Shown here in pieces: positions 2,779 through 22,593 of a DNA stretch of 23,367 nt. Below the pieces are notes generated by a model. It had not been told where the DNA came from. It was given only the letters and a program-made list of their open reading frames with translations, and did no database searches. How positions within the stretch are numbered: position 1 is the first letter of the stretch; each line of letters starts with the position of its first letter. The DNA is from Emiliania huxleyi CCMP1516. Taxonomy: Eukaryota. The DNA is taken from positions 1,066,758 to 1,090,124 of the forward strand of contig NW_005201192.1 in assembly GCF_000372725.1 (NCBI RefSeq), in the 5' to 3' direction. The translations under genes and the position numbers were made by a program.

Positions 2779-3302
2779 CTATCTACCGGCTTCGAGGGGC
2801 AGGATGCTGATGCCCTCCGGCTTGGACTTTGTGGGGACCGAGAGGGCGAGGGGCGGTCCAACAAGAGTGCCGTCGGGTCGCATGAGCAGCACCTGCTTCG
2901 ACTTGTCCGAGATGACGAGGAGGCGGTCGCCGTCTGTACCCGGACCTGCGCCCGGGACGTGGGAGATGCCCGCGACGTCTCCGACCGACGTCACGGTGGC
3001 GAGGAGCCGCTTGGCGTTCGGCGGCTGGCGGTCCATCCGCAGGGCCAGCGCGGGTTCCTTCTCCTTGAGAAAGTAGAAGGCGTCCTCGCCGGGGGAGTAC
3101 GTCACTCCCTCCACTCCGCCCGCCGTCTGGGTAAGGTCACTTCCGTACCCCGTCTGGTGCACCTGAGGCAAGGTCAGGTACACTTCTCCACACACACGAG
3201 GTGGTGGGGCAAGGGCCAGGCTGTCCCTCGCGTCTGACTCCACGTCTAACGACAGGAGCCCCACGGCATTCAAAGTGCAAGGCCCGGTGCGCGTGGGTGA
3301 GC

Positions 3303-3351
<49 letters not shown>

Positions 3352-4961: not shown

Positions 4962-5610
4962 TGTGTGTGTGTGTGTGTGTGACACTCACACAAAAACACA
5001 ACCCCGGCCCCCCAAGACGCACAAGCTCAGACCGAGAAAGGGATAGACAGCAGCGACACTGCGACAGTCAGAAAGAAGTCAGCGATGGGTCCCAGGAAGG
5101 CGAATGCGATGACGGCCTCTAGTGTGAGCTCTAGCTAGTGAGCTCATCGCTACTAACTATGTATATGCAGCGAGTTAGGAGCCGACCGACCGACCCTCGC
5201 GTCCGGTGCTCACCGACGGCCGGGCGGGCCACCCGCCCACGCGCCGCCTACGTACGGCTACGCGCAGCGCGTGCGCCGCAAACTCGCCAGCCGAGAGCGC
5301 CGGCCAGTCGCCATCGGCCGTCGCGAGAGGCCTGCCCGGCTGTCGCCGCGGGGCCCCCACGAACACCACGCGTCGGATGCGGTGCCGCGCGAACTCGCGC
5401 GCAAAGTGCACGCCCCACGCCCGCCGCAGCGTCGTAGCGAAGTAGGACCGCGCCTCCTTCGCGCTACGCGCGCCGATCCGCCTCCAGTGCTGCTTGGATG
5501 CCGACTCCACCACACAGTCGAACAGCTGGTGCAGGTCGTCCGACGCCTCCGCGTAGGCCCCGACAACGAGGCTGCGCACGGTGCCAAACGAGCGCAGCAC
5601 GGACGCCAAG
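4962..5610 (-). mobile_element. 5'-truncated non-LTR retrotransposon relic (C-terminus resembling RLE/CRE-type ORFs) with 3' UTR and (CA)n tail
   Basis: LRSFGTVRSLVVGAYAEASDDLHQL...WRRIGARSAKEAR...RRAWG resembles from memory the post-endonuclease C-terminus of RLE-type LINEs; stop at 5175, ~190-nt UTR, then (CA)n at ~4962-4981 on the minus strand. No TSD found. Confidence 0.5.
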
Positions 5611-7094: not shown

Positions 7095-7203
7095 CTAGTC
7101 GGCATCCGCCTTGGCCCTCGCAGCGGCCGCTGACGCGCGCCTCGCCTTGCCGGCAGCCAGTGCCGCCTCCGCCGCCTCCGCCGCCTCTGCCGCCGCCGCC
7201 GCA

Positions 7204-7235
<32 letters not shown>

Positions 7236-9089
7236 AGCCGCGGCGGCCGCCTCCTCCTCTGCCGCTGCCAGAGCGTCGGCCTCGGCTTCAGCCTCCCGGC
7301 GCGCCTCCGCTGCCACCAAGGCTGCCTCCTCACCCGCCTCTGCCGTCTCCTCCTCGCTCGCCTCGCCTGCCGCCTCGGCCTCCTCTCCCAACGCCTCCGC
7401 CAACCCCGCGACCGACGTCTCCGCCGTGATGCCGTACCGAATCCGCTCCTCGTGGAGCGTCTCGAGAAGCCTGATCAACCCCTCCCTGTCCAGCTTCGCG
7501 GGCTTGGCTGCGTCTGCCTCTGACGGCGCCTCGGACTCCTGCGACGGCCCAGCGCCGCCGCTCCCGCCGCCCTTCTTCTTCTTCTTGCCCTTCTTGCCCT
7601 TGCCGCGCTTCTCCGCCTCGACCTCCGCCAGCAGCTCCTCGGCGTGCCGCGCCGCCTCCGCCTCCGCCGCCGCCCGCTCCGCCGCCCTCTCCGCCGCCCC
7701 CGCAGCCCACGCCGCCTCCTTCGCCGCCTTCTCGGCCGCCGCCTTGGCCGCCGCATGCTCCTCGAGGGCACGCACGCACTCGGCGTGGCCCTCCTGCTTG
7801 GCAATCTGCAGCGCCGTGAGCCCACTCACCGAGCGCAGCTCCGTGTCGGCGCCCGCCCGCAGCAGGCAGAGTACGGCCGCTGGGTGGTTCATGAAAGCGG
7901 CGATCATCAGCGCGGTGCGGCCGACGCTGGTCTGAAGGTTGATCTCCGCGCCGTGCCGCAGCAGCTCGACCACCCGCTCGTGGCCGTTGAGGGCAGCGCC
8001 CATCAGCGCGGTGCTGCCGACGCTGTTCTGAAGGTCGATCGAAGCGCCACGCTGCAGCAACGCCACGGCCAGCCGCTCGTGGCCGTAGAAGGCGGCGGCC
8101 ATCAGCAGCGTAGAGCCGCTCACACCCACAAGAGTGAAAGTCGCGTCCACCCGCCCGCCGCCGTCGAGCCACGCCAGCACCGCCTCGTCGCCCTCCTCAG
8201 CCGCCTCCACGACCTCCTCGGGGACGGCATCCTCGTCCGTTCCGCTCTCCATGCCGCCAGAAGAGGGCGCGGCAGTTGGTGCCGCCGCTGCCCCCTTGCC
8301 CGAGGCGGCATCGCCGTCCGCCCCTGCGCCGCCCGCCTCGCTGATCTCCTCGGGAACAGGCCCGCTGCTGCCGTCCGAAGCGCTGCCTGCCCCCGCGCCG
8401 CCCGCCTCGACCGCCGCCGCGTCGCGCCTCTCCGCCGCCACCTCGCCGAGAAACGTCTTGACGGCGGCGACGCACTCGGTGTGACCCTTCTCCTTGGCGA
8501 TCTGCAGTGCCGTCTTGTCCGCCGTGCGCAGCGTCATGTCTGCGCCCGCCCGCAGCAACTGGAGCAGAACAGCAGGGTGGCCGTAGAAGGCGGCGCCCGT
8601 GAGCGCAGTGCAGCCGCCGACGTCCTGCAGGTCGACCTCTGCGCCGTGCCGCAGAAGCAAGTCGACCACCCGCTCGTAGCCTTGGTTGGCGGCGAGCATC
8701 AGCGCGGTGATACCGCGGCTACTCTGCAGGTTGATCTCCGCGCCGTGCCGCAGCAGCTTCTCGACCACCTGCACGTGGCCTTCGTTGGCGGCGGCCATCA
8801 CCGCCGCAAAGCCTTTGCTGTTTTGCGCGTCCACCTTCGCGCCCCGCTTCAGCAGAACCTCGACCAGCTGCTTGTGACCTTCGGTGGCGGCGATCGCCAG
8901 GAGCGTAAAGCCACTCACACCGCCACGCACGCACGTCACGTCAGCCCGCCCGTCCCCGGCGAGCCACGTCTGCACCACGCCCGCCTTGCCGTCCGCCGCC
9001 GCGGCTTGGATCTTTTTCGGCAGCGCGAGCAGCGCAGCCTGTGGCGCCGTTGAAGCGCGCCCTTTGCCAGCTCCGGTTCGGCCGGGCAT
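7095..9089 (-). CDS. Intronless ankyrin-repeat protein (two ankyrin modules, Lys-rich motif, Ala/Glu-rich coiled tail)
   Basis: 664-aa ORF with about 10 ankyrin repeats; KRGKGKKGKKKKK; close paralog of the gene at 623-1817 (WL.GGGR.DAT..GVSG.TLL module). Confidence 0.88.
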
Positions 9090-9164
9090 GGGAGCGCTCG
9101 CGCCCCGCCCCCCCCAGCAGTTTGTTGGAATAAAGAATTCCTTTGAATAGAGAAAATTAAACTC

Positions 9165-9267: not shown

Positions 9268-9979
9268 AGCTATGTCGTAAATTTCTTAGCCCAGTCTTAC
9301 CGCAAGGATTGGTGTAACGCGATCCACGCAGGCGCGTTTCTGACGGCCGACCGTCAGTGTGGTGCGCGGAGTCGCCCCCAGGCCTTCTCCGACTACATGT
9401 ACGCCCGCCCGCGACTGACTGTCGGTCGGCTAGAGCTAGTGTCTCTCCTGCCTGAGGCTGAGGCCGCGGCGCGCGGGAGAGACCCCTGCCCCCACCGGAC
9501 CTATAGCGTGGTGGGGAGGAGAGGGGCTCGCTGCGAGGAAGGGCGGTGTCTAAGACGGGCCGCCAATTCCCCATGTGCAAAGCCCGTCCCACCCCTTCGT
9601 CCCCCGCGCCATCGGGCCCCGCCGCTTAAACGGCGGGCGGGGGGGCATGGGGACGATTACGTCACGGTTTCGTGTGACGGCCTCGAAGCCAAAAAAGGTT
9701 GCGGTTGTTTTCCCAGGATGACGTGTCAGCTGAACCTGTGAAGGGCCCAGGTACGATCGTACGAAGATTCTCAAGCAATTCATAATTAAGTGAGGACGTG
9801 TCAGTTGTGAAGGGCCTGCTTACCTCGCCTCGTGCGACTTCTAAAATTCTTCTACTCGAGTACGCCCGCCGCCAGTCTGCAGGTCTCGATTCACGCAGAC
9901 ACAGCTCCGGTTCCTGTTCGGTCCTTGCACGCTAAGCGCAGACAGCAGCTCTCAAACTGCTTTTAGTAGGCATCGCGGG

Positions 9980-12213
9980 ATGTTTCCACGTGGACTTAAC
10001 ATGGCGGGCCGCTCCCGGAGCTTCTCGTCGTTTTTCGAAGGGCTCGGCTTGGATCCGCCAAAGGCCGGCAAGCGCCGCACGGCTGAGCGGATGGACCCCA
10101 AGACGTTCTTTGCAAACGAGCGCACCTTCGCGCAGTGGCAGGCCGCGGGCATGCTCCTCCTCACCGTCGGCATCGCTGTCACCAAGCTCGAGGATTCATT
10201 CGACACCGACCAGCTCGGCGGCATGACCGTCATCGGCTGCTCGCTTGTGATTATGCTGTACGGCCTCGTCTCTTTCCTGCACCGGCTCAAAAAGATTAAG
10301 CGCAAGGACCCGACCGGGTATGACGACCCGCTCGGCCCCGTCGCGCTCATCTTCGTCCTCTTCGCCGCAGTTGCCCTGTACCTCCGCCGCATGTACGGCT
10401 TCAATTGGGACACTGAAGGCATGCTCACGGCCGACACGCCCTTCTTCGAGGCCTTCAAGGTGCCGCTTACCCCCCCCCCCTCCCTCCCTTTCTCGTCTTC
10501 TCTTCACAGCTGCTGCGTCTGTGAGCAGGTCCCCCTTGCCCCATCGCACTTTGCGGACGAGGCGGCCGCCGTCGAGGTGGTGGCGAGGGCGCTGCAGGCT
10601 TCGGCCGCCGTCGCGTCGGTCACACCCCTTTCGCATGAGACAGCTTCCGAGTCCTGCCACTCACGAGTCATGGTTGTAGTGATTGGGGCCGGCATAGGTC
10701 ACTCTCGCAAACGCGACCTTTGAGCTCCTGCGCCGCACGCACCTCGACACGCACCACGCGACTCCTCTCCACTCCTTCCGAGAGATTTTCAACGCCAGCG
10801 GCACGGCGGTCACGCTCACCACGCTGCTGACGGCCGCGGGAGCGCGCCGCAAGAGCCGCAGCTTTGGCTCCGGGAGCGGCAAGGGGACGCTGACAGGCCT
10901 GGCGATGAGCATCCGCGGTGGCGACTTTGCGGAGCTCGCCTCCACCGCCGCAAACTGCGTTGGACGGTCGCGGCGCAACGGCGCGAAATCACATCTGAAA
11001 TGACTCAAGGTGGTACAGTGGACACCAGTTGCGTATCTAGGTACGCGGCGCACTGCGACGTCAGGATCGTGCGGACCTCGCACGCGATGGCGAGGGAGCT
11101 CACGGTCACGCGCGTGCCGCACACGGCGTCGGTCACGTCGGTCCGCGGCGGCCTGAATGTGGGCACTCCATGGAGTGAGTACGTCTCATCAGCGTCATGC
11201 TCGAATGAGTAGGCTGCCGACTTGGGCTTCGTCCGACACGTCAAGCATCATCACGCCCCATTCCAGTCATCTGATCCTGAGTAGGTTGGCGATCAAACTA
11301 TGTATATATACTTTTGTCTCTGGTGATGCCGCCTTTCCCTGAGAACGCACACAACGCCTCGTGTGTAATGCCCTGTGTTCCGCGAGTGCGCGTGCCCCGT
11401 CGTCCATGCTAGGACGTGTGTAACACTGACTGACTGACTGTAGGTTGGCGATCTACGCGGGTACTTTGCCCTGCCGCGCGACGTGGGCGGCAGTATGCGC
11501 GCCGCGCCCTTTCTGACCGCGCGGTGCCGCCCCCTTCAACCAGTGTCATCCACAAACCTCTGGGTTCGATTCTCAGCCCGCCCGACGCCACTGCCCTAGG
11601 TGGTCACCGCTCCTGCCCGCCCGCCCCTCCTGCTCGGACGGCGAGCGGTTGTACGTGGTGGGCGAGCACTACTATTGGAGGGTGCGGCCCACAGTCCATG
11701 TTCACATCACCGCGCATTGCGCGCGGCGCGCCTCGCCTGTTTCAATGCGTCGACCTGGCCTTAGGTGCGGCTCCCGTTCTCTCTCGCGGCGGCGCCGGAG
11801 TCTCGCCTCGTCGCGTCGCTTACCACACGGTATGACACGCCGCAGCTGGCGGTGCGGCCGGACCGGGCGCCGCGCGAGGACTCGGAGCTGTCCTTCCGGC
11901 TCGCCAGCCAGGCTCGCGCGTCATGGATCACGAATAGTAGTCGGTGTGATGAACGCATCGCCCGCCCCTCCTCTTCATCGGACGCCGCCCGCCCTCGTCA
12001 TCGCCGCGCCCCTCCTCAAGCCAGGGCCCCCGGCCTCGAGCTTAGAGCCATAGCGGACCGGCGACCCCCTCCCAACCTTCTCGGAACCTTCTCGGAACCC
12101 TCCCGCAGGCTCCCGACGTCACGCCCGAGGGCGGCGACCTCGCCGGCCCCTCCCTCCTCGCCGCGCGTGCGCTCTACAGCGAGCTGCGCAGCGCGCCTTG
12201 GGCAGCACCGTAA
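9980..12213 (+). CDS. VTC1-like DUF202 three-TM protein with long C-terminal CYTH-like domain (paralog 1, 8 predicted exons)
   Basis: MDPKTFFANERTFAQW...KKIKRKDPTGYDDPLGP is the VTC transmembrane signature. Predicted introns 10460-10528, 10619-10697, 10967-11040, 11141-11443, ~11483-11599, 11682-11764, 11912-12108; TAA 12211-12213. Aligns with the paralog at 16078-18354; frame across 11600-11640 is unresolved. Confidence 0.8.
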
Positions 12214-12566
12214 GGAGTGTGTGAGCGCTCAGCGGACAGGCGCGGTGATTTATTTTCCTCACCTGGCCCTGGCGCGCTGGCCACGACCCTGCCACGTGGT
12301 TCGGTCTACGGCCACGAGCGTGTCTCTAGACTTCCTTGTGGCACGTCCACTTCGCACTTGACACTCTAAGATGCCCTCTGTAACACTATAAGAGATCTCA
12401 AACTGCTGCACACTGCATGGGAAAAATCAACAGTCACAACAGTGGTCCGTGTGCACATTTACGGCTTTATCATTTTGGGGGCAAGAACAACACTTATGCC
12501 CCGTCGCAGCGCACCGCCGACGCGCGACGGCCGGCGGAGGTACAGCAGCACAGCGTAGCGAAGCGC

Positions 12567-13792
12567 TAGCTATGCAAGGGACCGCGGCCGCGGAACCGGC
12601 GGCGGACGGGGCTGGTGCGCAAGCGCCGGCCACCGTCGTGCTGCAGGCCTGCACCGGGGGTGCGCAGCGGACCCTGGAATAGCTACGATCGCGCGCAACT
12701 GGAAGACGCGGTGATGGTCGCAAGGCTCGCAGGTGCGTCGCAGGTCAGGCTGATAAGGCCTGGCTACGCGACCATCGAGGTCGACCTGAAGCACGAGAAG
12801 GCCGCGGGCGACCGCGAGTCTGTGCAGGCGGCGGAGCGCTTGTTCATCGAGCGCACCGCGCCGCGGAAGAAGGAGGAGCTGACGGAGGAGCAGAAGGATG
12901 CTCGGGCCGCGGCTCGCAGGGCCAAAAAGGCCCGGCAGAAGGCGAACAGGGCGAAGAAGAAGGCTGCGGCGGCGGCTGCGAGCGAGGCCGAGCGTGCGGG
13001 CTACCCGTACGCGCAGCTGCGCGAGAACGCCATGTTCGTGATGGAGGGCCTGGAGGCTGCGACGCAGGCGGCGCGCATCCCCACCGGGTCCAACATTCAG
13101 GTCGCCTACGCGCTGCCTCCAGAGGGGGGCAGCGGGTTCGGCGACATGGTGTACGCCACGGTCCCTATGGGCTCCGTGGCGACGAAGGTCGCCCGGGACT
13201 GGCTCGCCAACGAGCTCTACGAGCCGTCCCGGCGAGGCAAAATTGATGCGGCCTGCAGGGACCGAAAGGTTGCCGACCTGATCACGGCTGCCGGCGCCTC
13301 GGCGCCGGCCGACGCCGTGTTCGGCGGCAGGTTCGCGACGGGCGAGACGCCCCGCCCGACGACCTCCGCCTCCGAGGCGGACGAGGGCGACGGCGGCGAT
13401 GGCGGGGCCGAGAACATGTCCTTTGACTTATTCTAGGTCCCCACCCCTGGCCTCACCCATATCTTACCTTCTGCCCCCCCCTCCTGCGACCCCCCAGGCT
13501 AGATGGAGTAGTCAGATGTAGACTTTGCCCCACACAGCCCCTTACCCCTTCACCCTCGCCTCGCTGCTTGGTGTTTCTGAACACGTAGTCGTCCACGCTG
13601 TGGGGGTTTGTGCGGGTCCTGTGTCTGGGAGGGAGGGAGTGGGGTGCAGGTTGCTCACCCACGGCACCGGGCCGGTGCTTGCACTTTGAATGCCGTGGGG
13701 CTCCTGCCCGTGTCCCGGGCGTGGAGATGCGAGGGTCGCCCCCCCTTGCCCCACCACTTTGTGTGTGTGGAGACGTTTACCTTACCTTACCT
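12567..13792 (+). mobile_element. ~1.2-kb non-autonomous non-LTR retroelement with 11-bp TSD and (CCTTA)n tail
   Basis: TAGCGAAGCGC at 12556-12566 and 13793-13803; ends TTTACCTTACCTTACCT; one ORF without RT motifs, then a ~355-nt 3' UTR whose last ~170 nt recur elsewhere in the window. Confidence 0.85.
12572..13436 (+). CDS. Element-encoded basic/coiled protein (ORF1-like), probable frameshift near the G-run at ~12656-12660
   Basis: ATG 5 nt inside the element (MQGTAAAEP...) in one frame; long coding-like frame (...RAAARRAKKARQKANRAKKK...MSFDLF) ends TAG 13434-13436; alternative start ATG at 12714. No RT or endonuclease motifs seen. Confidence 0.55.
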
Positions 13793-14158
13793 TAGCGAAG
13801 CGCGTGTTCGGCGTGTGAGACCCCAGTCGCAGTGCGCGTCGTACCGCTGCCCCGGCAGGTTGGTAGCGCACCAGCTGGAAGGGCTCGGCGGAAGTGTATC
13901 GCGCGCCTTGCGGGGGGGGCGCGGAAAAGAGGAACCTCTTAGCGCCATCGCCAGGGAGGGTGCTGCAAGCAGCGCCGGGCGACGACTCGCGCCCGTGAAT
14001 TTTCCCCGTGCGCGGAAAGCGGGCCGCCCGCGTGGCGTGTCTCTACTGGTTGCACCCAAACAGTAAATTTTGATGCACTTTCATTATCAGGACAGTAAAG
14101 TTTGGCACTTGGCCAGTCACAACTCTCAACAATTCTCGAGCCCAGTCACACCGCTGCT

Positions 14159-16003
14159 ATGCAGACACCATTCGTCTTACTGCTCTCGCAGTCGCTATCG
14201 CAGGCACCACCCGGCTTGTGCAACAGCTTCTGCGCCCAGAAGACCCAACCCTGGGATGTGCGGTGCACCTGGAACGGCTGCGGCGCCTGCACCGAGTGCC
14301 CCGTGGTGTCACAGCCACAGATCGTGCCACCACCTGCCCCTCCTCCCCCGTCTCCGCCGCCACCCCCGTTCTGCCCGGCCTTCTGCGCCAGGAAGACAGA
14401 CACCTGGGATGATCTGTGCACCTGGGACGGCTGCGGGACCTGCACCGAGTGCCTTCCGATCAGCGCACGGGTGACCGCCTAGCTTAGCCAACCGCTAGCG
14501 CGCCGAAACAAGAACAGGGGGGGGAGATGCCTGGGAGGCGGAGATGGCACACGCGCACTCGCTCGCACCGTGTGCGCAGGTCACAGTCTCGCCGTCGCCT
14601 TCACCGCCACCGCCAGCGCTGCCCTCTCCCCCCTCCCCACCTGCGGCGCCGGAGGGGTATGGCGGTGACAGAGTCGGACGACGTCTCCGAGTGCAGCTCT
14701 GCCAGGGCGACGCGGAATGAAGTTTTTCTGCTCAATAACAAGCAGCGCTGGGAGAGGGCCGACTTCAAGGAGCTGCTCGGGGATGCTTCGAACGAGACCT
14801 ATGTCGGCCCGCTGGCGAGCACCTGCGCGGCCGCAGCTCCCTCCTGCAGGTCGCGATTGAGCGAGATTGCGGCCCTGCCTGCTCCTAGCAGCAACCCGTT
14901 CCGAGATTACGACTGGTGTCTCAAGAGAGCCGCCTGCCCAGCACCAATCGGCGCCGACTGCGTCGCACGAGAGTGCGCGGCTCTTGTGCAGAAGTGTGAG
15001 TCGGCCGGCTCCGCAACGTCTCTCCCGATTGGAATCGTCACGGTCGACGCGCACGTGCACAGCGACCACCCGGGCGTCCAACGATGGAAGATGTACGCAT
15101 CGGTGCACAACTACACGTACATTAGCAAGTGGCCTGAGGTGCCTCCGGACGCAAATGAGTGCGCGAATCGAATCATGCTCCAAGATTGGTCGTCGTCGCT
15201 CATCATGCTGGACATCATTCGAGACCCGCAGTATGCGCACGTCGCCTACTTCATGTACGTCGAGCTCGACCAGTGGATGGTGCGATCGAGCACGACCTTC
15301 CGCCCATCCGCCCCGCGACCCATGCCTGCAAGTGCACTTAGCTCACGAGGCTCTGTCCATCTGCCAGGTACGCCCGATGGCGCGGCTCGAGCCCCTGTTT
15401 GAGATCGCCCACCTGACGAGCGACTTGGACTCCGCGCCAGTGATGGCGGTCGTCGACGAGTACCCCTGCCGCGATGTCCGCGGTGGCGGGCTGTACAACG
15501 CCGGCACATACTTCGTGCGGCGACACCCCGTGGTCTCCAGCATTCTTTCTGCCTGGCACCAGTCCGAGTTCTACGGGGGTGCTGGGAGCCCAGACTGGCC
15601 TGCAAGGCAGGGTGCCTTTTCGCACGACCCACAAGTGTACGCCGCGCACAGCCGCCGCATCACGGCGTTCCCGGCGGGCTGCGTCGCCGGATCGCCGTTT
15701 GCACCTCTGATTGGCCATGCTCTCGGGGGCACCATCAACGGGGTCTTTGATCCAAACGTTGCCCGTGTGGAGGTGAAGCGGGAGGTGCACCAGTGCGTGA
15801 TGGGCTCGTTGCTAGACAGGCAGGCGAGAACCTGCGTACTCAAGCAGAAGATCGACGGGGCTACTGCTCGGTGCACATTGAACCGCCACGGCCGCGGCGT
15901 CGACCGTCCGAGCGTCGTGGGTGTTGGACTGTTGCAGGGGAGCGGGAGGCCTAGCTTGTGGCACTTGACACTTTTAAACACGTTACTAGAGCCGTACACG
16001 TAG
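14159..16003 (+). CDS. Secretory-pathway protein: two Cys/Trp-rich repeats, Pro-rich linker, GT34-like (GMA12/MNN10) glycosyltransferase domain
   Basis: Signal-like MQTPFVLLLSQ; CxxFCAxKTxxWDxxCTWxGCGxCTEC twice; introns 14471-14579 and 15280-15367; YASVHNY, FMYVELD (DxD-equivalent), LYNAGTYFVR, QGAF, LIGHALG resemble GT34. A 1-nt frameshift near 14654-14657 is needed to join the parts. Confidence 0.6.
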
Positions 16004-16016
16004 AGCCGTACACGCC

Positions 16017-16068
16017 AGCTGCTCCTGCCCGTGTCCCGGGCGTGGAGATGCGAGGGTCGCCCCCCCTT
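16017..16068 (+). mobile_element. Internal fragment of the retroposon 3' tail between convergent genes
   Basis: GCTCCTGCCCGTGTCCCGGGCGTGGAGATGCGAGGGTCGCCCCCCCTT matches ~13700-13747; preceded by tandem TAGAGCCGTACACG x2. Confidence 0.85.
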
Positions 16069-16077
16069 GGCTGATTC

Positions 16078-18354
16078 TCACGCGTTGTCCGACACCCACG
16101 GCGCGCTGCGCAGCTCTCTGTAGAGGTCGTGCGCCGCGAGGGAGAGGGCGCCGTCCGAGTTGAGGTCGCTCACCTGAGGGGTTAGCAAGCAAGGTGAGGC
16201 GCGAGCTCCTCCACACACGCTTTTGTGGGGGCTCACAGGCTGAGCCGCCCTCGCTCACCTCGACGCCGTGGTTCTGGTTGCCTCCAATCTTGAAGGAGAG
16301 CTCGGAGTCTTCCCGCGGCGTCTGCAGCGGCAGCACCGCCAGCTGCGGCGACTCGTACTTTGTGGTGAGCGACGCGTAGAGGTAGACGGACGGCGCTTGC
16401 GCGAGCGCAAACGGCAGCTTGACCTGACGGGCACACAAGGCAGGGACGGGAAGTCTGGCTCGAAAGTCTGGCGGCGCCACACGCGCCACACGCGGGCGTG
16501 CAAGGCTACCCCCGCGTGCGCTGTGCTGCTGCTTCACCTTCCAGTAGTAAAACTCGTCGCGCACGTAGAGGCGCTCCTCGTCCTCCGTGCCGAGCAGGAA
16601 GGGCCCCGCCGGCACACGAGGCGGTAACGCGAAGTACCCCCTCAGGTCGCCTAGATCAGAAACACACCCGGAGATGCGCGTCTGTTTCTGGGCCCCCCGC
16701 ACACCACACCCGCGAAGGTGGTCGCCGATCGTGGTGAGCGAGGTCGTGTGCGGCATGCCCGAGATCTTGACCGAGCGCTGCCAGCTGGTGGCGGGCAGCG
16801 GCACGCGCGGCGAGCGCGGCTGGCCAACCTCCGCCTTCTCCATGTGGAAGTTCTGCTCCACCTTGACCTCGCAGTGCGCCGCGTACCGTCCGACGCAGTT
16901 GGCGGCGGTGGCGGCGAGCTGCGCGCGCTCGGTGCCCTTGACGGAGAGAGTGAGGTCCGTGCTGCCCGTGCCCGGCGCCGAGCCGAGGTTGGCGCTCATG
17001 TAGCGCGCGCCCTTGAGGGTTAGGCGCGTGGTCAGCTTCACCTTGGAGCGGCCCTGGTTGACGACGAGGTCCTCCGCCGTGTCGAGCTCCGTCTGGCGAA
17101 AGAGCTCGAAGGTGGCGTGGGCGAGTGTGACTGACGAGACCGACGCCGAGGCCTGCATCGCCCTCGCAACCATCGCGATGGCGGCGGTCTCGTTGACGAA
17201 GTACGACGGCATCACCCCCATCTCAAACTCCTTGGAGAAGGGCGTGTCGGCCGTGTGCACCTAAGGTCAGCTCACGGAAACTTCTCCACGCGTGCACAAG
17301 GGGGCGGGGCAAGGGGGGGCAGGCAGTCCTCGCGACTCCACGTCTAAGCGACGGGAGCCGGCCCGGCACTCAAAGTGCGAGGGGCCCGGTGCGCGTGGGT
17401 GAGCGGTGTGAGCGGTGTGAGCGGTCTGTGCGCACCTCCTCGCCCGGCCACTTGAAGGTATACATCCGGAGGAGGTAGGTTCCGACTGCGCCGCAGAGGA
17501 CGATGACGAGTAGAACGGGGCCGACTGGGTCGTCGTAGCCCAGCGGGTCCTTGCGCTTGATCTTCTTGAGGCGGAGGAGGAAGGTGAGGAGGCCGTACAG
17601 CATCAGCAGCAGCGCCGAGCACCTATCCACTTATGGATGATGAGTCACGAATGCACTCTCAGCGGCACAGCAGCAGCAGCGCCGAGCGCATGATCATCAG
17701 GCCGCCGCCGTCCTGCTCCGCGCCCGCCACGTCCTGTTCACAGCTGGAGGTGTGAAGAGACGCTGTTCACGGTGTGGCCGTCCATGTCCTCCATGTCGTC
17801 CTCAAGCTCGGTGATTGCGATGCCGACCGACAGGAGCAACATGCCCGCGCTCAGCCACGACGTGAAGGTGCGCTCGTTCGCGAAGAACGTCTTGGGCTCC
17901 ATGCGGGCGGCGGGGCTCCGTGCGACGCGCTTGCCCGCCGTCGGGTCGCCGTCCACCATCCGGCTCCACGCGGTCTGCGTCCCCCCGGCGGAGGCGGAGC
18001 CGAGGTGGCTGAAGGAGGGGAGCGCGAAGCTCCACGAGCCGTCGAAGCTCCACGAGCGCGTGCGCCGCGGGCCTGACGGCACCGTCACCGTCTCTGACGG
18101 CGCCGACTCTGGCGGCACCGCCTGCTTGGCGGCAACGCCGCCGCCCGCCGTGACGGAGCGCGCGTTGAGCGGCGACGAGCCCGCCTTCGCCGCCGGCGCC
18201 ACCGTCTTCATCCACTCGGCAGCACGTACTCGCTCACCGAAAGATAAGCGTTGCGCTGAGTCGAGGTGGCCACCTAGGCATCGACGATGGGGCTGGGCTG
18301 CGGGCGAGGAGGAGGGTGCTGACGAGGGCGCGGAGCTATAGGCGAGGAGGAGGG
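16078..18354 (-). CDS. VTC-family DUF202 protein with C-terminal CYTH-like domain (paralog 2); 5' part runs into the gap
   Basis: MEPKTFFANERTFTSW...KKIKRKDPLGYDDPVGP. Predicted introns 17734-17788 (or -17770), 17623-17689, 17261-17435, 16651-16725, 16424-16537, 16174-16258; TGA at 16078-16080. Collinear with paralog 1 through ...LY.ELRSAPW. Confidence 0.82.
17261..17435 (-). mobile_element. Intron formed by the retroposon 3'-tail family (subfamily B), GT-AG
   Basis: GAG|GTGCGCACAG...CGCTCACCCACGCGCACCGGGCC..GCACTTTGAGTGCC...CGTGGAGAAG...CTGACCTTAG|GTGCACACGG; splicing gives WPGEE|VHTADTPF, matching intron-free WDTEGMLTADTPF in paralog 1. Confidence 0.88.
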
Positions 18355-19199
18355 NNNNNNNNNNNNNNNNNNNNNNNNNNNNNNNNNNNNNNNNNNNNNN
18401 NNNNNNNNNNNNNNNNNNNNNNNNNNNNNNNNNNNNNNNNNNNNNNNNNNNNNNNNNNNNNNNNNNNNNNNNNNNNNNNNNNNNNNNNNNNNNNNNNNNN
18501 NNNNNNNNNNNNNNNNNNNNNNNNNNNNNNNNNNNNNNNNNNNNNNNNNNNNNNNNNNNNNNNNNNNNNNNNNNNNNNNNNNNNNNNNNNNNNNNNNNNN
18601 NNNNNNNNNNNNNNNNNNNNNNNNNNNNNNNNNNNNNNNNNNNNNNNNNNNNNNNNNNNNNNNNNNNNNNNNNNNNNNNNNNNNNNNNNNNNNNNNNNNN
18701 NNNNNNNNNNNNNNNNNNNNNNNNNNNNNNNNNNNNNNNNNNNNNNNNNNNNNNNNNNNNNNNNNNNNNNNNNNNNNNNNNNNNNNNNNNNNNNNNNNNN
18801 NNNNNNNNNNNNNNNNNNNNNNNNNNNNNNNNNNNNNNNNNNNNNNNNNNNNNNNNNNNNNNNNNNNNNNNNNNNNNNNNNNNNNNNNNNNNNNNNNNNN
18901 NNNNNNNNNNNNNNNNNNNNNNNNNNNNNNNNNNNNNNNNNNNNNNNNNNNNNNNNNNNNNNNNNNNNNNNNNNNNNNNNNNNNNNNNNNNNNNNNNNNN
19001 NNNNNNNNNNNNNNNNNNNNNNNNNNNNNNNNNNNNNNNNNNNNNNNNNNNNNNNNNNNNNNNNNNNNNNNNNNNNNNNNNNNNNNNNNNNNNNNNNNNN
19101 NNNNNNNNNNNNNNNNNNNNNNNNNNNNNNNNNNNNNNNNNNNNNNNNNNNNNNNNNNNNNNNNNNNNNNNNNNNNNNNNNNNNNNNNNNNNNNNNNNN
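18355..19199. other. Assembly gap (845 N)
   Basis: Run of N. Confidence 1.
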
Positions 19200-19621
19200 G
19201 TGTGCGGCACGCGCGTGACCGTGAGCTCCCTCGCCATCGCGTGCGAGGTCCGCACGATCCTGACGTCGCAGTGCGCCGCGTACCTAGATACGCAACTGGT
19301 GTCCACTGTACCACCTTGAGTCATTTCAGATGTGATTTCGCGCCGTTGCGCGGGGACCGTGCAACGCAATGTCCGCCGGTGAAGGGGGGATCGGCAGAGC
19401 GGGGTGCAGCGGGGGAGTGGGGCGCGGCAAGGGCAGCCTCTGTGTCGGGCTCGGAGTCGAGCCCGCCGCAGACGGAGGACTGGCGCGAGACTTGGCGCGA
19501 GCACCTGCTCACAGCTGCAGGCGTGAAGATACGCCGTTCACACTCACAGCTCGGCGGACCCGTCGGCGCGAGCACAGCGCTGCGAAGGCTTCGGCTTGAG
19601 GCCGGGCTGGAGCAACGCACT

Positions 19622-19695
19622 CAGATCTCGGCCAGATCTCGGCCAGATCTCGGCCAGATCTCGGCCAGATCTCGGCTGGATCTCGGCTGGATCTC
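19622..19695. repeat. 11-nt CCAGATCTCGG tandem repeat (probably intronic)
   Basis: About 6-7 units. Confidence 0.9.
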
Positions 19696-19698
19696 GTC

Positions 19699-20463
19699 CT
19701 GTCCGCGGGCGCGGCTGCCGAGGCGACTGTCCGCTCCGTGCGGAAGGTACCGTCGCTGCGGCCACTGACGTCCTTGAGGAGGTTGGGCAGCTGCCTAAGG
19801 TGAGGCAAGGGAAACGTCTCCACACACACAAGGGGGGGCGACCCTCGCATCTCCACGCCCGGGACGCGGGCAGGAGCTGGCACGGCATTCAAAGTGCAAG
19901 CACCGGCCCGGTGCCGTGGGTGAGCAACCTGCAACCCACTCCCTCCCTCCCAGACTGCGGGTTGTGCGGCAGCTGCCTGCGCTGAGCCTCATCGAGCTCT
20001 GCCGCCGGCGCCCAGTCGCGGACTGCGGCGAGGGAGTAGCTCGCGCCCTCGAGAGGCTGGCTGGCCAGCGCCTCCTTGACGGCGGGCTCCTGTTCACAGG
20101 CTGCACCCGTGAAGGGACGCCGTTCACAGGCTGGCTGGCCAGCGCCTCCTCGACGGCGGGCTCCTGTTCACAGGCTGCACCCGTGAAGGGACGCCGTTCA
20201 CAGGCTGGCTGGCCAGCGCCTCCTCGACGGCGGGCACCTCGAACCAGTACGGCAGCGTCTCCACCGCGCCGGTGTGCAGCGCCGCGCACCCCGTCAGGTA
20301 CTTCGAGAACTTGGCCATCGGGAGGAGCAGCTCCGACGCGAGCAGCTCCTGTTCAGGACGCCCTCTTCACTGAGTGGGCGCTTGCTCCCTCCTCGGGGAC
20401 GTCACGCTGCCCTCTCGCGAGCGGCTCCTCCACCCACGCTGGAGCCTCGGCCTGCAGCTTGAC
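19699..20463 (-). CDS. C-terminal part of a VTC polyphosphate-polymerase (TTM) domain, Vtc2/3/4-like; probably upstream exons of the gene at 16078-18354
   Basis: Spliced exons 20463-20428, 20348-20238, 20089-19977, 19794-19699 give VKLQAEAPAWVE|ELLASELLLPMAKFSKYLTGCAALHTGAVETLPYWFE..., matching the VTC EVKLQ...P.WV.EL......KFSKF..G....LPFW motif. Confidence 0.75.
19795..19976 (-). mobile_element. Intron formed by the retroposon 3' tail (subfamily A), GC-AG, perfect 11-bp TSD
   Basis: 19797-19955 is near-identical (reverse complement) to 13623-13792 apart from one short deletion and a few substitutions; GGCAGCTGCCT at 19786-19796 and 19968-19978. Confidence 0.92.
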
Positions 20464-20922
<459 letters not shown>

Positions 20923-22593
20923 CGTTGCGGCTAACTTCGAAATGTGCACCTGGGATGGCTGCGCTCCCTTTGTGCTGGCTGGCTGGTACACCCTGCGGCG
21001 GCGCGGCCGGTTGAGAGGTTTTCTTTTTGTGAGAGAAAAGCCTTGGGGTGGGAACCTCTGAGAAGGTGCAGGCGTGCGAGGGCGCTATCTGCGTCGTGCG
21101 GGGCTGCTGGCTGGGCGCTCTTGTGTTGTAAGGCTGCTGTTTTCTCAGGGCGCGGGGGGTCGCGCAGTGCGTGAGCCGCGCGGGCGTGTGTGAGTGTATT
21201 AGCTTTCCAGTTGATCCTTATCGGACTGGTGAGTTCCCTCTCGCTGTCAGTGTGACGTCCAGGCAGTCATTGGCAGCGGTGCTACACACCCTACGCCTTC
21301 ATTCGTTTTCTCCAAGTAGGAAAGAAATTTTGTGTCTCGTCATCATGTTTTTCTTTTTTTGCTTATGGCAGTAAAAAGAAACGGAACTGTGTGCGACAGG
21401 CGCGGGCTCGGTCGATATCCAATACTTCGACTCACATGTTCACTGCTGCGGTGTGTGCCCGGGAAGGCGCAGCGGCGGGATGGATTGAGAAGGTCTCAGA
21501 GAGACTGCAGGCGTGCAGAGGCGCGCGTTGCAGTGTCTCTGATTGGGCTGCTGGCGGTGTGAGCGCGAGACGGCGTGGTGAGGCGAGGGGCAGGCTGTTG
21601 TTGCGGGGTGCGGGCAGCATCGTCGAGCGCAGTGCGTGTGGTGCTGTATGCTGTGTGTGCAGGCAGGCTGGCAGTCTGTGCTGTAGACCGGAACGGATGA
21701 GCGCGCGCGCGCGCGCGCGCGCGCGTGCGGGCGTGCGTGCGCGGCTTGCGCGGTGCAGGACCTGCGTCGTACTCGCGGCGCGTCCTGGTACTGCCGCTTG
21801 TGAGATGCCAGAAGCAGTGTGCAGAGCCTGCACAGGGCGCAAAAAGGCGAGGTAGTGCTGGTGAGGTGTGCTGCGGTGCGCGCGTCGCGGCGTGAGTGGA
21901 CGAGCGGCTGGCTCTGGTAGTGCGAGGGGCGCGCAGCTGGTGCGGGCGGCGCGGGACGGCCATGGGGCGCCAGCACAGGGCAGACGCACATGGCACAGCT
22001 CTGAAATGGCGCTGCGCGTGTTTGCGTGCGCGCGGGGACGTACGCGCAGTTTTCACGCGGTGTGCGTGGAGAAGGGCATGAGGCTTGAGGGGCGCCGGCC
22101 GCGCGCGGCTCGGCGTGTGCGAGTGCGTGGTTCGTGTGGTTCGGTGCCCGAAGGCGACTGACCAGTCTTGCTGCCATCGCGGAACGAAGGCTTTAGAAGA
22201 AAGGTGACCCCCCCCCCACGAGGCAATGTTCGTCCCTGGCTCGCTTCCCCCCCAACCCCCAGTTCTATCCCCCAGTTCCAGCCCCCTCCAATCCCCAGTG
22301 TCGCCACGTACCTGCGCAGAAACCCGTATGCGCTGTGATCGGTTCCCGATCCATCCCGCTCGCCGTGCCGCATGAGAGCTACATGGAGAAGCCGGACGTC
22401 TTGGCGTGCCGCCGATCGCTGTCGGTGAAGCTGTTCGGCGCCTATAAACGGTGAAGCCTCCAGCGTGAGGGGCTGCAGAGGGGAGCAGAGGGGCGCAGAG
22501 GGGAGCAGAGGGGAGTGGCCGGGGGAGGCTCCCAATGCAATCTCGACTCGGGCAATCTCGGGTAATCTCGGGGAGTCCAAAGTCATCTCGCAC

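Follow-up and report, generated by a model that had tools for sequence, protein, structure and literature searches.

Truncated tails of a LINE-like retroposon family as a likely source of spliceosomal introns in Emiliania huxleyi

How new spliceosomal introns come into being in large numbers is an old problem, and the cases understood in detail concern DNA transposons. A GC-rich stretch of 23,367 nucleotides of the Emiliania huxleyi CCMP1516 genome (contig NW_005201192.1, positions 1,066,758 to 1,090,124 of the forward strand; hereafter the window, numbered from its first letter) raises this question for another kind of element. It contains a 1.2-kb intergenic insertion, and a preliminary description of the window proposed that truncated retrocopies of its 3' end had become introns in neighbouring genes. 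Can the tail of a retroposon make an intron? We have high confidence that the repeat family is real, has been recently mobile and forms introns in many genes with its truncated tails. The explanation that we favour, to which we assign a probability of about 0.75, is LINE-type retroposition, with 5'-truncated sense copies in exons surviving as spliceosomal introns.

The intergenic element, a non-autonomous member of the subfamily defined below as I, occupies positions 12567–13792 (+) and is slightly truncated at its 5' end. It is flanked by two plus-strand copies of an 11-bp repeat, TAGCGAAGCGC, at 12556–12566 and 13793–13803; a search of the whole window found this repeat at these two sites only. 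The final four nucleotides of the upstream copy (GCGC) are also the element's own 5' sequence, as at a microhomology join. A contig from DNA run X9 joins position 12552 to position 13793, with 10 letters between them, and thus contains the repeat once, the element being absent. This empty site, which is an allele or a paralogue, identifies the repeat as a true target-site duplication (TSD), as the preliminary description had claimed. The (CCTTA)n tail that it reported was likewise present, at 13776–13794 (+), as TTTAC(CTTAC)2CTTA; it is pyrimidine-rich, and its final TA overlaps the TSD. Upstream from the tail lies a conserved 3' core (13653–13726, +), common to the three subfamilies defined below; an 8-bp hairpin is predicted at about 13701–13726 (+). 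Self-comparison revealed neither terminal inverted repeats nor long terminal repeats, and no small-RNA-derived head of the type carried by SINEs was found in an Rfam scan of positions 12400–14000, which gave three matches, all far under the gathering score.

The element has a single ORF (12570–13436, +), belonging to a multicopy family. In this copy, a 10-nt insertion near 12645 places the family N-terminus out of frame, and the first in-frame methionine lies at about 12714. There were 114 relatives at E≤0.001, those with names being E. huxleyi CCMP1516 proteins, apart from an MMETSP transcript and a protein labelled as coming from a proteobacterial MAG. The ORF matched no Pfam family, no protein-atlas entry and, with a low-confidence predicted model (pLDDT 48), no fold in Foldseek; constraint on it is weak (dN/dS 0.52–0.82 in six pairs). 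Read depth in the sequencing runs was far higher over the tail bin than over the ORF bins, in ratios that we do not read as copy numbers. A joint from 13814 to 16052, observed in runs X12, X9 and X2, skips 2,237 nt (window 13815–16051), including a gene at about 14160–15960, and lands within the fragment at 16021–16069 described below; it is a deletion or insertion haplotype adjoining the element.

The statistics for the family are based on at least 120 metagenome loci (an estimated 170 or so stretches) and the window copies. Most of these loci carry two assembly prefixes and therefore represent sampled sites rather than independent populations. The 3' core and (CCTTA)n tail recur at these loci, as in four genic copies in the window, and the sequence 5' of the core splits the family into three subfamilies: I, which includes the window element; II (L014 and L055), with the same ORF; and III, with (CA)n before the core. 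After de-duplication, the sequence upstream from the core extended over 0–246 nt in subfamily III (35 copies), 2–1208 nt in II (21 copies) and 0–1086 nt in I (16 copies), the search pattern missing copies shorter than the core; close to 200, some of the type I 5' ends are points at which the sequence changes to that of another ORF subfamily. Different sequences followed the tail directly in 40 and 33 contigs of two DNA runs. The family therefore has the fixed 3' end with a simple-repeat tail and the variable 5' truncation characteristic of LINEs. The variable-length TSDs of LINEs were also found, at 8–15 bp, in many copies, and were absent or unrecognisable in many others. Among 19 copies for which a 5' flank was available, most of them outside genes, 6 had a TSD of at least 8 bp, and a separate comparison added two more; collapsed assemblies may explain some of those missing. 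The hairpin was kept in 41 of 61 distinct aligned cores, with one pair being U-A in 26 and C-G in 13, a compensatory change that is a single subfamily-level event and hence lends weak support to the hairpin.

The tail pattern had no match in viral contigs; the two matches in prokaryote genomes were confined to the 45-nt pattern and were treated as chance. The tail end is repeated directly after itself in L036, and (CA)n follows the tail in L027, L097 and L115, leading into another core in L027. A further dispersed repeat, recognised by eye at window positions 4985–5135, also lies beside tail copies L006 and L032.

Comparison of the 1.2-kb element with the window by BLASTN yielded minus-strand matches at 19795–19955 (88%, E 2e-60), 3163–3302 (79%, 7e-28), 17261–17404 (74%, 7e-16) and 20485–20615 (69%, 1e-6). 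All four genic sites listed in the preliminary description were thus recovered and, as stated there, each copy is sense to its host, on the reading-frame strand, with a tail that runs into yAG|G. In the predicted 182-nt GC-AG intron at 19795–19976 (−), from subfamily I, both splice sites are spanned by an 11-bp TSD, AG|GCAGCTGCC, without a mismatch (11/11 exact); the flanks are in register, the frame is restored and the same insertion is present in L018. The 175-nt GT-AG intron at 17261–17435 (−, phase 0) is a subfamily III copy with the repeat AG|GTGCGCAC / AG|GTGCACAC. At 3163–3351 (−), a predicted GC-AG intron of 189 nt in phase 0 consists of (CA)n, core and tail (subfamily III, 92% identical to the L065 tail discussed below). 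Its direct repeat is exact over 3 nt only (AG|GCGCGC versus AG|GTGCAC), and the exon downstream matches PF06977; the predicted intron is open in frame, so the frame does not force splicing. The intron at 20464–20949 (−) takes its acceptor from a subfamily III copy, which follows some 300 nt of (CA)n. Position 20920, originally given as the end of this copy, is not a donor; the nearest AG|GT is at 20949, which makes for an uncertain donor, and there is no TSD beyond CAG|GT.

A fifth genic copy, a short and decayed version of the tail, forms an 85-nt intron at 16174–16258 (−) with a 10-bp flanking repeat, AG|GTGAGCGA. Its likeness to the tail scored 36, a value reached by none of 300 shuffles (17 introns tested), and the length of the RNA contig is consistent with this intron. 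A tail-less 49-nt fragment, identical at all 49 positions to the hairpin region of the element, lies at 16021–16069 (+), antisense to the 3' end of a gene that we take to be VTC-like; it had been reported as 16017–16068, so its existence was borne out and its limits were corrected. Elsewhere in the window, 590–1820 and 7095–9090 (−) contain two intronless, mutually related genes with 99-nt tandem units, presumably ankyrin-like.

RNA contig 3 (run X12) covers 16720–17256 and 17797–18274, with 231 letters between the two. Excision of 17261–17435, 17622–17688 and 17734–17800 leaves exactly 231 nt with an open frame, so that the prediction equals the observation, and the junction predicted for the 17261 copy held in this respect. 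The boundaries of the other two introns were inferred by us and the joint row is not among the rows shown; the RNA support for 17261–17435 is therefore length arithmetic. Direct RNA support, via an assembled contig, is available for this one of the five window copies, and its retention would shift and stop the frame. RNA run X13 has hardly any coverage of these genes. Correct splicing is indicated for this copy by RNA arithmetic and for others by frame register and domain continuity, and further tail copies are likely to be spliced too. For 17734–17800 and 17622–17688 (−), the same arithmetic implies a 67-nt GA-AG intron and a 67-nt GC-AG intron whose opening stretch duplicates some 19 nt of the exon that follows.

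The gene containing the 17261 intron (16070–20463, −) has a paralogue in the window, gene B (9976–12215, +). The two have a common C-terminal region, no coinciding intron positions near the site tested, and what we take to be a DUF202/VTC-like membrane segment. Gene B aligns ungapped through the intron site (59% identity over 54 aa), the homologous intron-free position falling between 10420 and 10421 (10410–10430, +), and an RNA contig is unbroken over 9963–10457. The absence of the intron from a homologue was observed at this one position; a comparison of 28 junction peptides yielded no further homologue that was informative. Presence/absence polymorphism, a check proposed in the preliminary description, may underlie the X9 empty site of the 1.2-kb element, if that site is an allele, but was not found for an intron: both DNA runs contain that at 17261. 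Segment 10925–11124 of gene B is 94% identical to 19200–19399, beside an N gap, and this identity is possibly an assembly artefact.

Across the family, 74 of 125 copies (the loci, numbering at least 120, and five window copies) could be scored at the 3' junction; the other 51 had a short 3' flank (23), no recognisable tail (19), a repeated site (8) or a tail running into (CA)n (1). Tails ended at AG|G[TCA] in 31 of the 74, versus 11.7–12.8% for real tails joined to random flanks (p≤5e-10), so that similarity reaches the 3' splice boundary in these copies, as in introners. The excess was found in subfamily III (26/43) and not in I and II (5/31). With 2,460 codons from the window as its training set, a codon model identified the correct strand in 67 of 79 held-out windows; it scored the 90 nt after the junction as sense-coding in 28 copies, antisense in none and non-coding in 46 (n=74), against 123:137 in distant windows. 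The scoring rule for coding flanks was revised after inspection; the earlier rule gave 28 sense and 4 antisense for 83 copies. Tabulation of orientation thus agreed with the sense bias initially proposed, as did that of TSD length (8–15 bp) and 5' truncation (0–1208 nt) with the variability expected. Sense-coding flanks were more frequent in AG|G copies (20/31) than in others (8/43; Fisher p 8.5e-5, metagenome alone p 8.6e-4), and the flanks of the other 11 of the 31 were non-coding-like. The AG|G copies were also more diverged (median 89.6 versus 93.3%, p 0.016) and fewer had at least three perfect tail units (7/31 versus 27/43). The concentration of the AG|G preference in subfamily III and older copies fits random insertion followed by selection, not targeting.

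For 35 candidate introns, 14 of them rescued by hand, the 5' flank was also available. Exact junction repeats of at least 8 bp were present in 11 of the 35, versus 2.4% in cross-paired controls; an apparent match at the 3163 copy was spurious. Where both flanks were coding-like, the frames were in register in 10 of 12 cases (p 5e-4). In L004, residues 490–527 of the V-ATPase subunit a model precede a 131-nt copy and residues 528–609 follow it. Pfam matches beginning at residue 1 after the acceptor numbered 3 in 121 sense segments and 0 in 98 antisense segments, which are small numbers. The flanks represent at least four unrelated gene families, as expected of introners under the working definition of PMC12130899, with matches to V_ATPase_I, Kinesin, Mito_carr, Aa_trans, RAI1, SdiA-regulated, eRF1_3 and Guanylate_cyc. 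The consistent 5' boundary of introners was not observed: the 5' ends vary, and the intron starts with TSD-derived host sequence, often with (CA)n. In 21 of the 35 candidates, CT(T/G/C)AC motifs were present no more than 45 nt from the acceptor; the CTTAC motifs of the tail resemble the branch-point consensus and are putative branch points.

These anatomies suggest two routes to an intron. In the first, the target would begin with AG|G(T/C/A), the upstream TSD copy would become the donor, and the tail together with the AG of the downstream TSD copy would become the acceptor. The copy at 19795 and those in L041, L087, L112 and L001 have this structure, their introns consisting of the remainder of the TSD, the truncated copy and AG. 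In the second route, truncation would occur at a CAG|GT or CAG|GC within the element, with a microhomology join to a TSD ending in AG; in L004, L026, L028 and L083, the element's own GT or GC lies just 5' of the core and is joined via the shared CAG. By either route, splicing would restore the exon exactly. As the duplicated target site and the tail supply splice signals, sense exonic 5'-truncated copies would be likely to survive as introns; insertion is probably untargeted, with selection removing exon insertions that cannot be spliced. The duplication of an AG|G site as donor and acceptor, as originally proposed, is therefore seen directly in the five copies listed for the first route, but it has to be complemented by an element-borne donor in others; the repeat at 3163–3351 is weak, and the 20464 copy lacks a clear donor.

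It could be argued instead that most copies entered pre-existing introns near the acceptor and took it over, the sense orientation being kept because the tail makes a good polypyrimidine tract. Some copies probably did so. L006, L009, L049, L074, L099 and the 20464 copy look as if they had inserted at or near the acceptors of longer introns that may be older: in L006, a stop and a TAG|GT resembling an acceptor lie upstream, and non-coding sequence separates the donor from the element in the other five, and two of the 12 register tests failed. As an account of the family, this explanation is nevertheless unlikely, because the introns of the 19795 copy and of L004, L028, L041, L087 and L112 comprise little beyond TSD and element, and the paralogue is intron-free at the 17261 site. 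Insertion into older introns, which would have undermined the first proposal had it been general, thus appears to apply to a part of the copies.

The source of the machinery is suggested by locus L065, in which a subfamily III tail ends an ORF of at least 975 aa (L065:1–2925, +); L045 and L085 are truncated copies of the same element. Pfam was blank for this ORF itself. Over the first 91 residues of the ORF, a close relative, P0150, shows 86% identity; this protein has an RNase H directly upstream from the L065-like part (PF00075, E 2.4e-5, 25.0 bits against a cut-off of 25.8). The same match was obtained in 4 of 13 cluster mates of P0150, one of them above the cut-off, and a CCHC-like motif, read by eye, follows the RNase H. 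Several LINE ORF2 proteins have RNase H and CCHC in this order. For the C-terminal part of the ORF, distant relatives match SET (PF00856, about 4e-5), and there is also a long acidic tail. Neither a reverse transcriptase nor an endonuclease (APE or RLE) was seen: the Pfam search covered the L065 ORF, in sequence starting after the first 4.1 kb of contig UPTG01005250.1, a search for longer proteins related to it gave none, and no reverse transcriptase was found in the viral contigs searched. Protein-atlas leads for P0150 were all <0.9 and concerned RNase H clusters only, and long ORFs upstream from subfamily II copies, considered as candidate reverse transcriptases, are host genes. A literature search found no paper combining E. 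huxleyi, a non-LTR retrotransposon and a SET domain.

Judging from its sequence, the L065 element is likely to be an autonomous LINE. The retroposon hallmarks on which the first proposal rested (TSD, repeat tail and variable 5' truncation) thus stand, and a LINE-like element with the same tail exists, with RNase H in its relatives, although its reverse transcriptase was not seen. The proposal also has to be amended with regard to the source of the introns: the 19795 copy, the only one of subfamily I among the four, fits the 1.2-kb element, but the other three are nearer to the L065 tail (92, 79 and 87%) than to the 1.2-kb element (79, 73 and 69%). We envisage a non-LTR retroposon family with one 3' end, composed of core, predicted hairpin and (CCTTA)n tail. 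The L065-type element, with its RNase H-CCHC-SET-like ORF, would supply reverse transcriptase in cis, and the same machinery would serve the 1.2-kb ORF-only elements in trans, with the hairpin as recognition signal and the tail as priming site in what would be target-primed reverse transcription.

A second alternative dispenses with dedicated target-primed retrotransposition: pieces of an abundant repeat, as DNA or cDNA, would be captured during double-strand-break repair at staggered breaks. Inexact break repair is a mechanism listed in the accessible part of Gozashti et al. 2022 (PMC9860276); microhomology at 5' joins and the tail-less fragment at 16021 fit it, and junction repeats are also present in introns unrelated to the element. 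In 12 such introns, 56 of 96 positions matched, versus 33.4 by permutation (p 5e-5), a test that is partly circular because five of the boundaries were inferred. In the RNA-defined subset, seven introns with RNA joints, including the gene B introns at 10460–12108, the corresponding values were 27 of 56 and 19.3 (p 0.027). Such repeats could reflect break repair, or else a more general history of insertions that create TSDs. For the tail family itself, break repair is an improbable source, given that the 3' end is fixed at the tail, tail length is variable, 5' loss is one-sided and the tail belongs to a long ORF bearing RNase H. A non-autonomous DNA element (a MITE-type introner) or a helitron, suggested by the 3' hairpin, by CTAG-like ends in some copies and by the predominance of DNA transposons among classified introners in the accessible part of PMC12130899, is very hard to reconcile with a repeat tail of variable length and with long, variable TSDs of 8–15 bp in place of the terminal inverted repeats and short fixed TSDs of MITE-type introners or the TSD-free insertion reported there for helitrons.

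LINE-type retroposition of truncated tails has partial parallels in known systems. MITE-type introners of Micromonas, Aureococcus and Symbiodinium likewise take one splice site from the TSD and restore the exon exactly. They have terminal inverted repeats and short fixed TSDs, of 4 nt in Symbiodinium according to the part of 10.1101/2020.10.14.339549 available, whereas the tail family has no inverted repeats, TSDs of 8–15 bp, a variable 5' end and a repeat tail. In sharing its tail with a long LINE-like element, the 1.2-kb element resembles the ORF1-only non-autonomous LINEs HAL1, HeT-A and Ag-Sponge, which combine one ORF with the 3' end of an autonomous LINE (PMC5786205, as accessible); its own ORF differs in having weak constraint and no detected homology to any ORF1. 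The eel UnaL2 and zebrafish ZfL2 stringent LINE/SINE pairs, in the accessible parts of PMC4176376 and PMC1636434, also comprise autonomous and dependent elements with a common 3' stem-loop tail; the dependent element here differs from those SINEs in encoding a protein and having no small-RNA head. Other papers in this field are PMC11282704, PMC7789003 and PMC11782384. We know of no stringent LINE/SINE pair of the UnaL2 or ZfL2 type that makes introns.

Non-LTR introners have been catalogued: in the accessible part of Gozashti et al. 2025 (PMC12130899), they account for about 5% of classified families, and "non-LTR" occurs 14 times in Dataset file 8. Like the tail family, these are exonic transposon copies spliced via co-opted or carried sites; unlike it, those in the rows consulted are supported for the most part by homology or structure assigned automatically. 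The terms "truncat", "tail" and "target-primed" do not occur in the main text of that paper. Its three E. huxleyi families are classed as Unknown, Unknown and LTR, one of them having 10-bp terminal direct repeats, and are about 30–70 nt long, versus 130–260 nt for tail-family introns. The five E. huxleyi families in Supplementary Table 6 of PMC9860276, also repeated introns of this species, average 70, 70, 37, 37 and 37 nt, lengths that fit the 37-nt unit described below and not the tail family. Length, and length only, sets the tail family apart from the listed families. As the PMC12130899 screen, in the part of its methods available, requires similarity to both intron boundaries, the tail family, which works like an introner, would probably fail that filter. 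Introners, including non-LTR ones, are already catalogued in these sources, and the truncated-tail route is little described: neither the family nor intron creation by truncated tails was described in the titles and abstract openings searched. The E. huxleyi genome paper, Repbase and subscription journals lay outside that search, and the LINE may already be named in them.

A second, unrelated repeated intron unit of 37 nt was observed on the minus strand at 17734–17770, in the 19505–19541 region and at 20090–20201, and in L020, L052, L054, L078 and L079 (13 matches; 86–98 contigs per DNA run). The acceptor comes from this unit, and several of its copies follow a 30–36-nt duplication of the exon downstream, so that the introns are about 70 nt long. 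Judging from the lengths in the accessible table, the unit may form a single system, marked by a very long TSD, together with the 37- and 70-nt E. huxleyi families of PMC9860276. It is conceivable, although we are inclined to doubt it, that long-TSD insertion, led by a still active LINE family and by the 37-nt unit with its duplications of about 33 bp, is the main ongoing source of introns in this coccolithophore, and that most short introns are its decayed products.

The route suggested by this anatomy needs no special adaptation of the retroposon: the repeat tail reads as a 3' splice region, the long TSD gives the missing site, and 5' truncation trims the copy to intron size. If long-TSD insertion is indeed the main source of introns, 5'-truncating retroposons would be a class of intron makers missed by the design of current introner screens, and the common GC and GA donors here would be a by-product of exon-derived donors. 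The published screen, in its accessible description, demands similarity that extends to the two ends of the intron, and it may therefore under-count families of this kind elsewhere. In one cultured and resequenced alga, fresh introns whose TSDs are perfect and introns in decay occur together with young copies between genes and with polymorphic insertions, and this coexistence would make the birth and ageing of introns directly testable in E. huxleyi.
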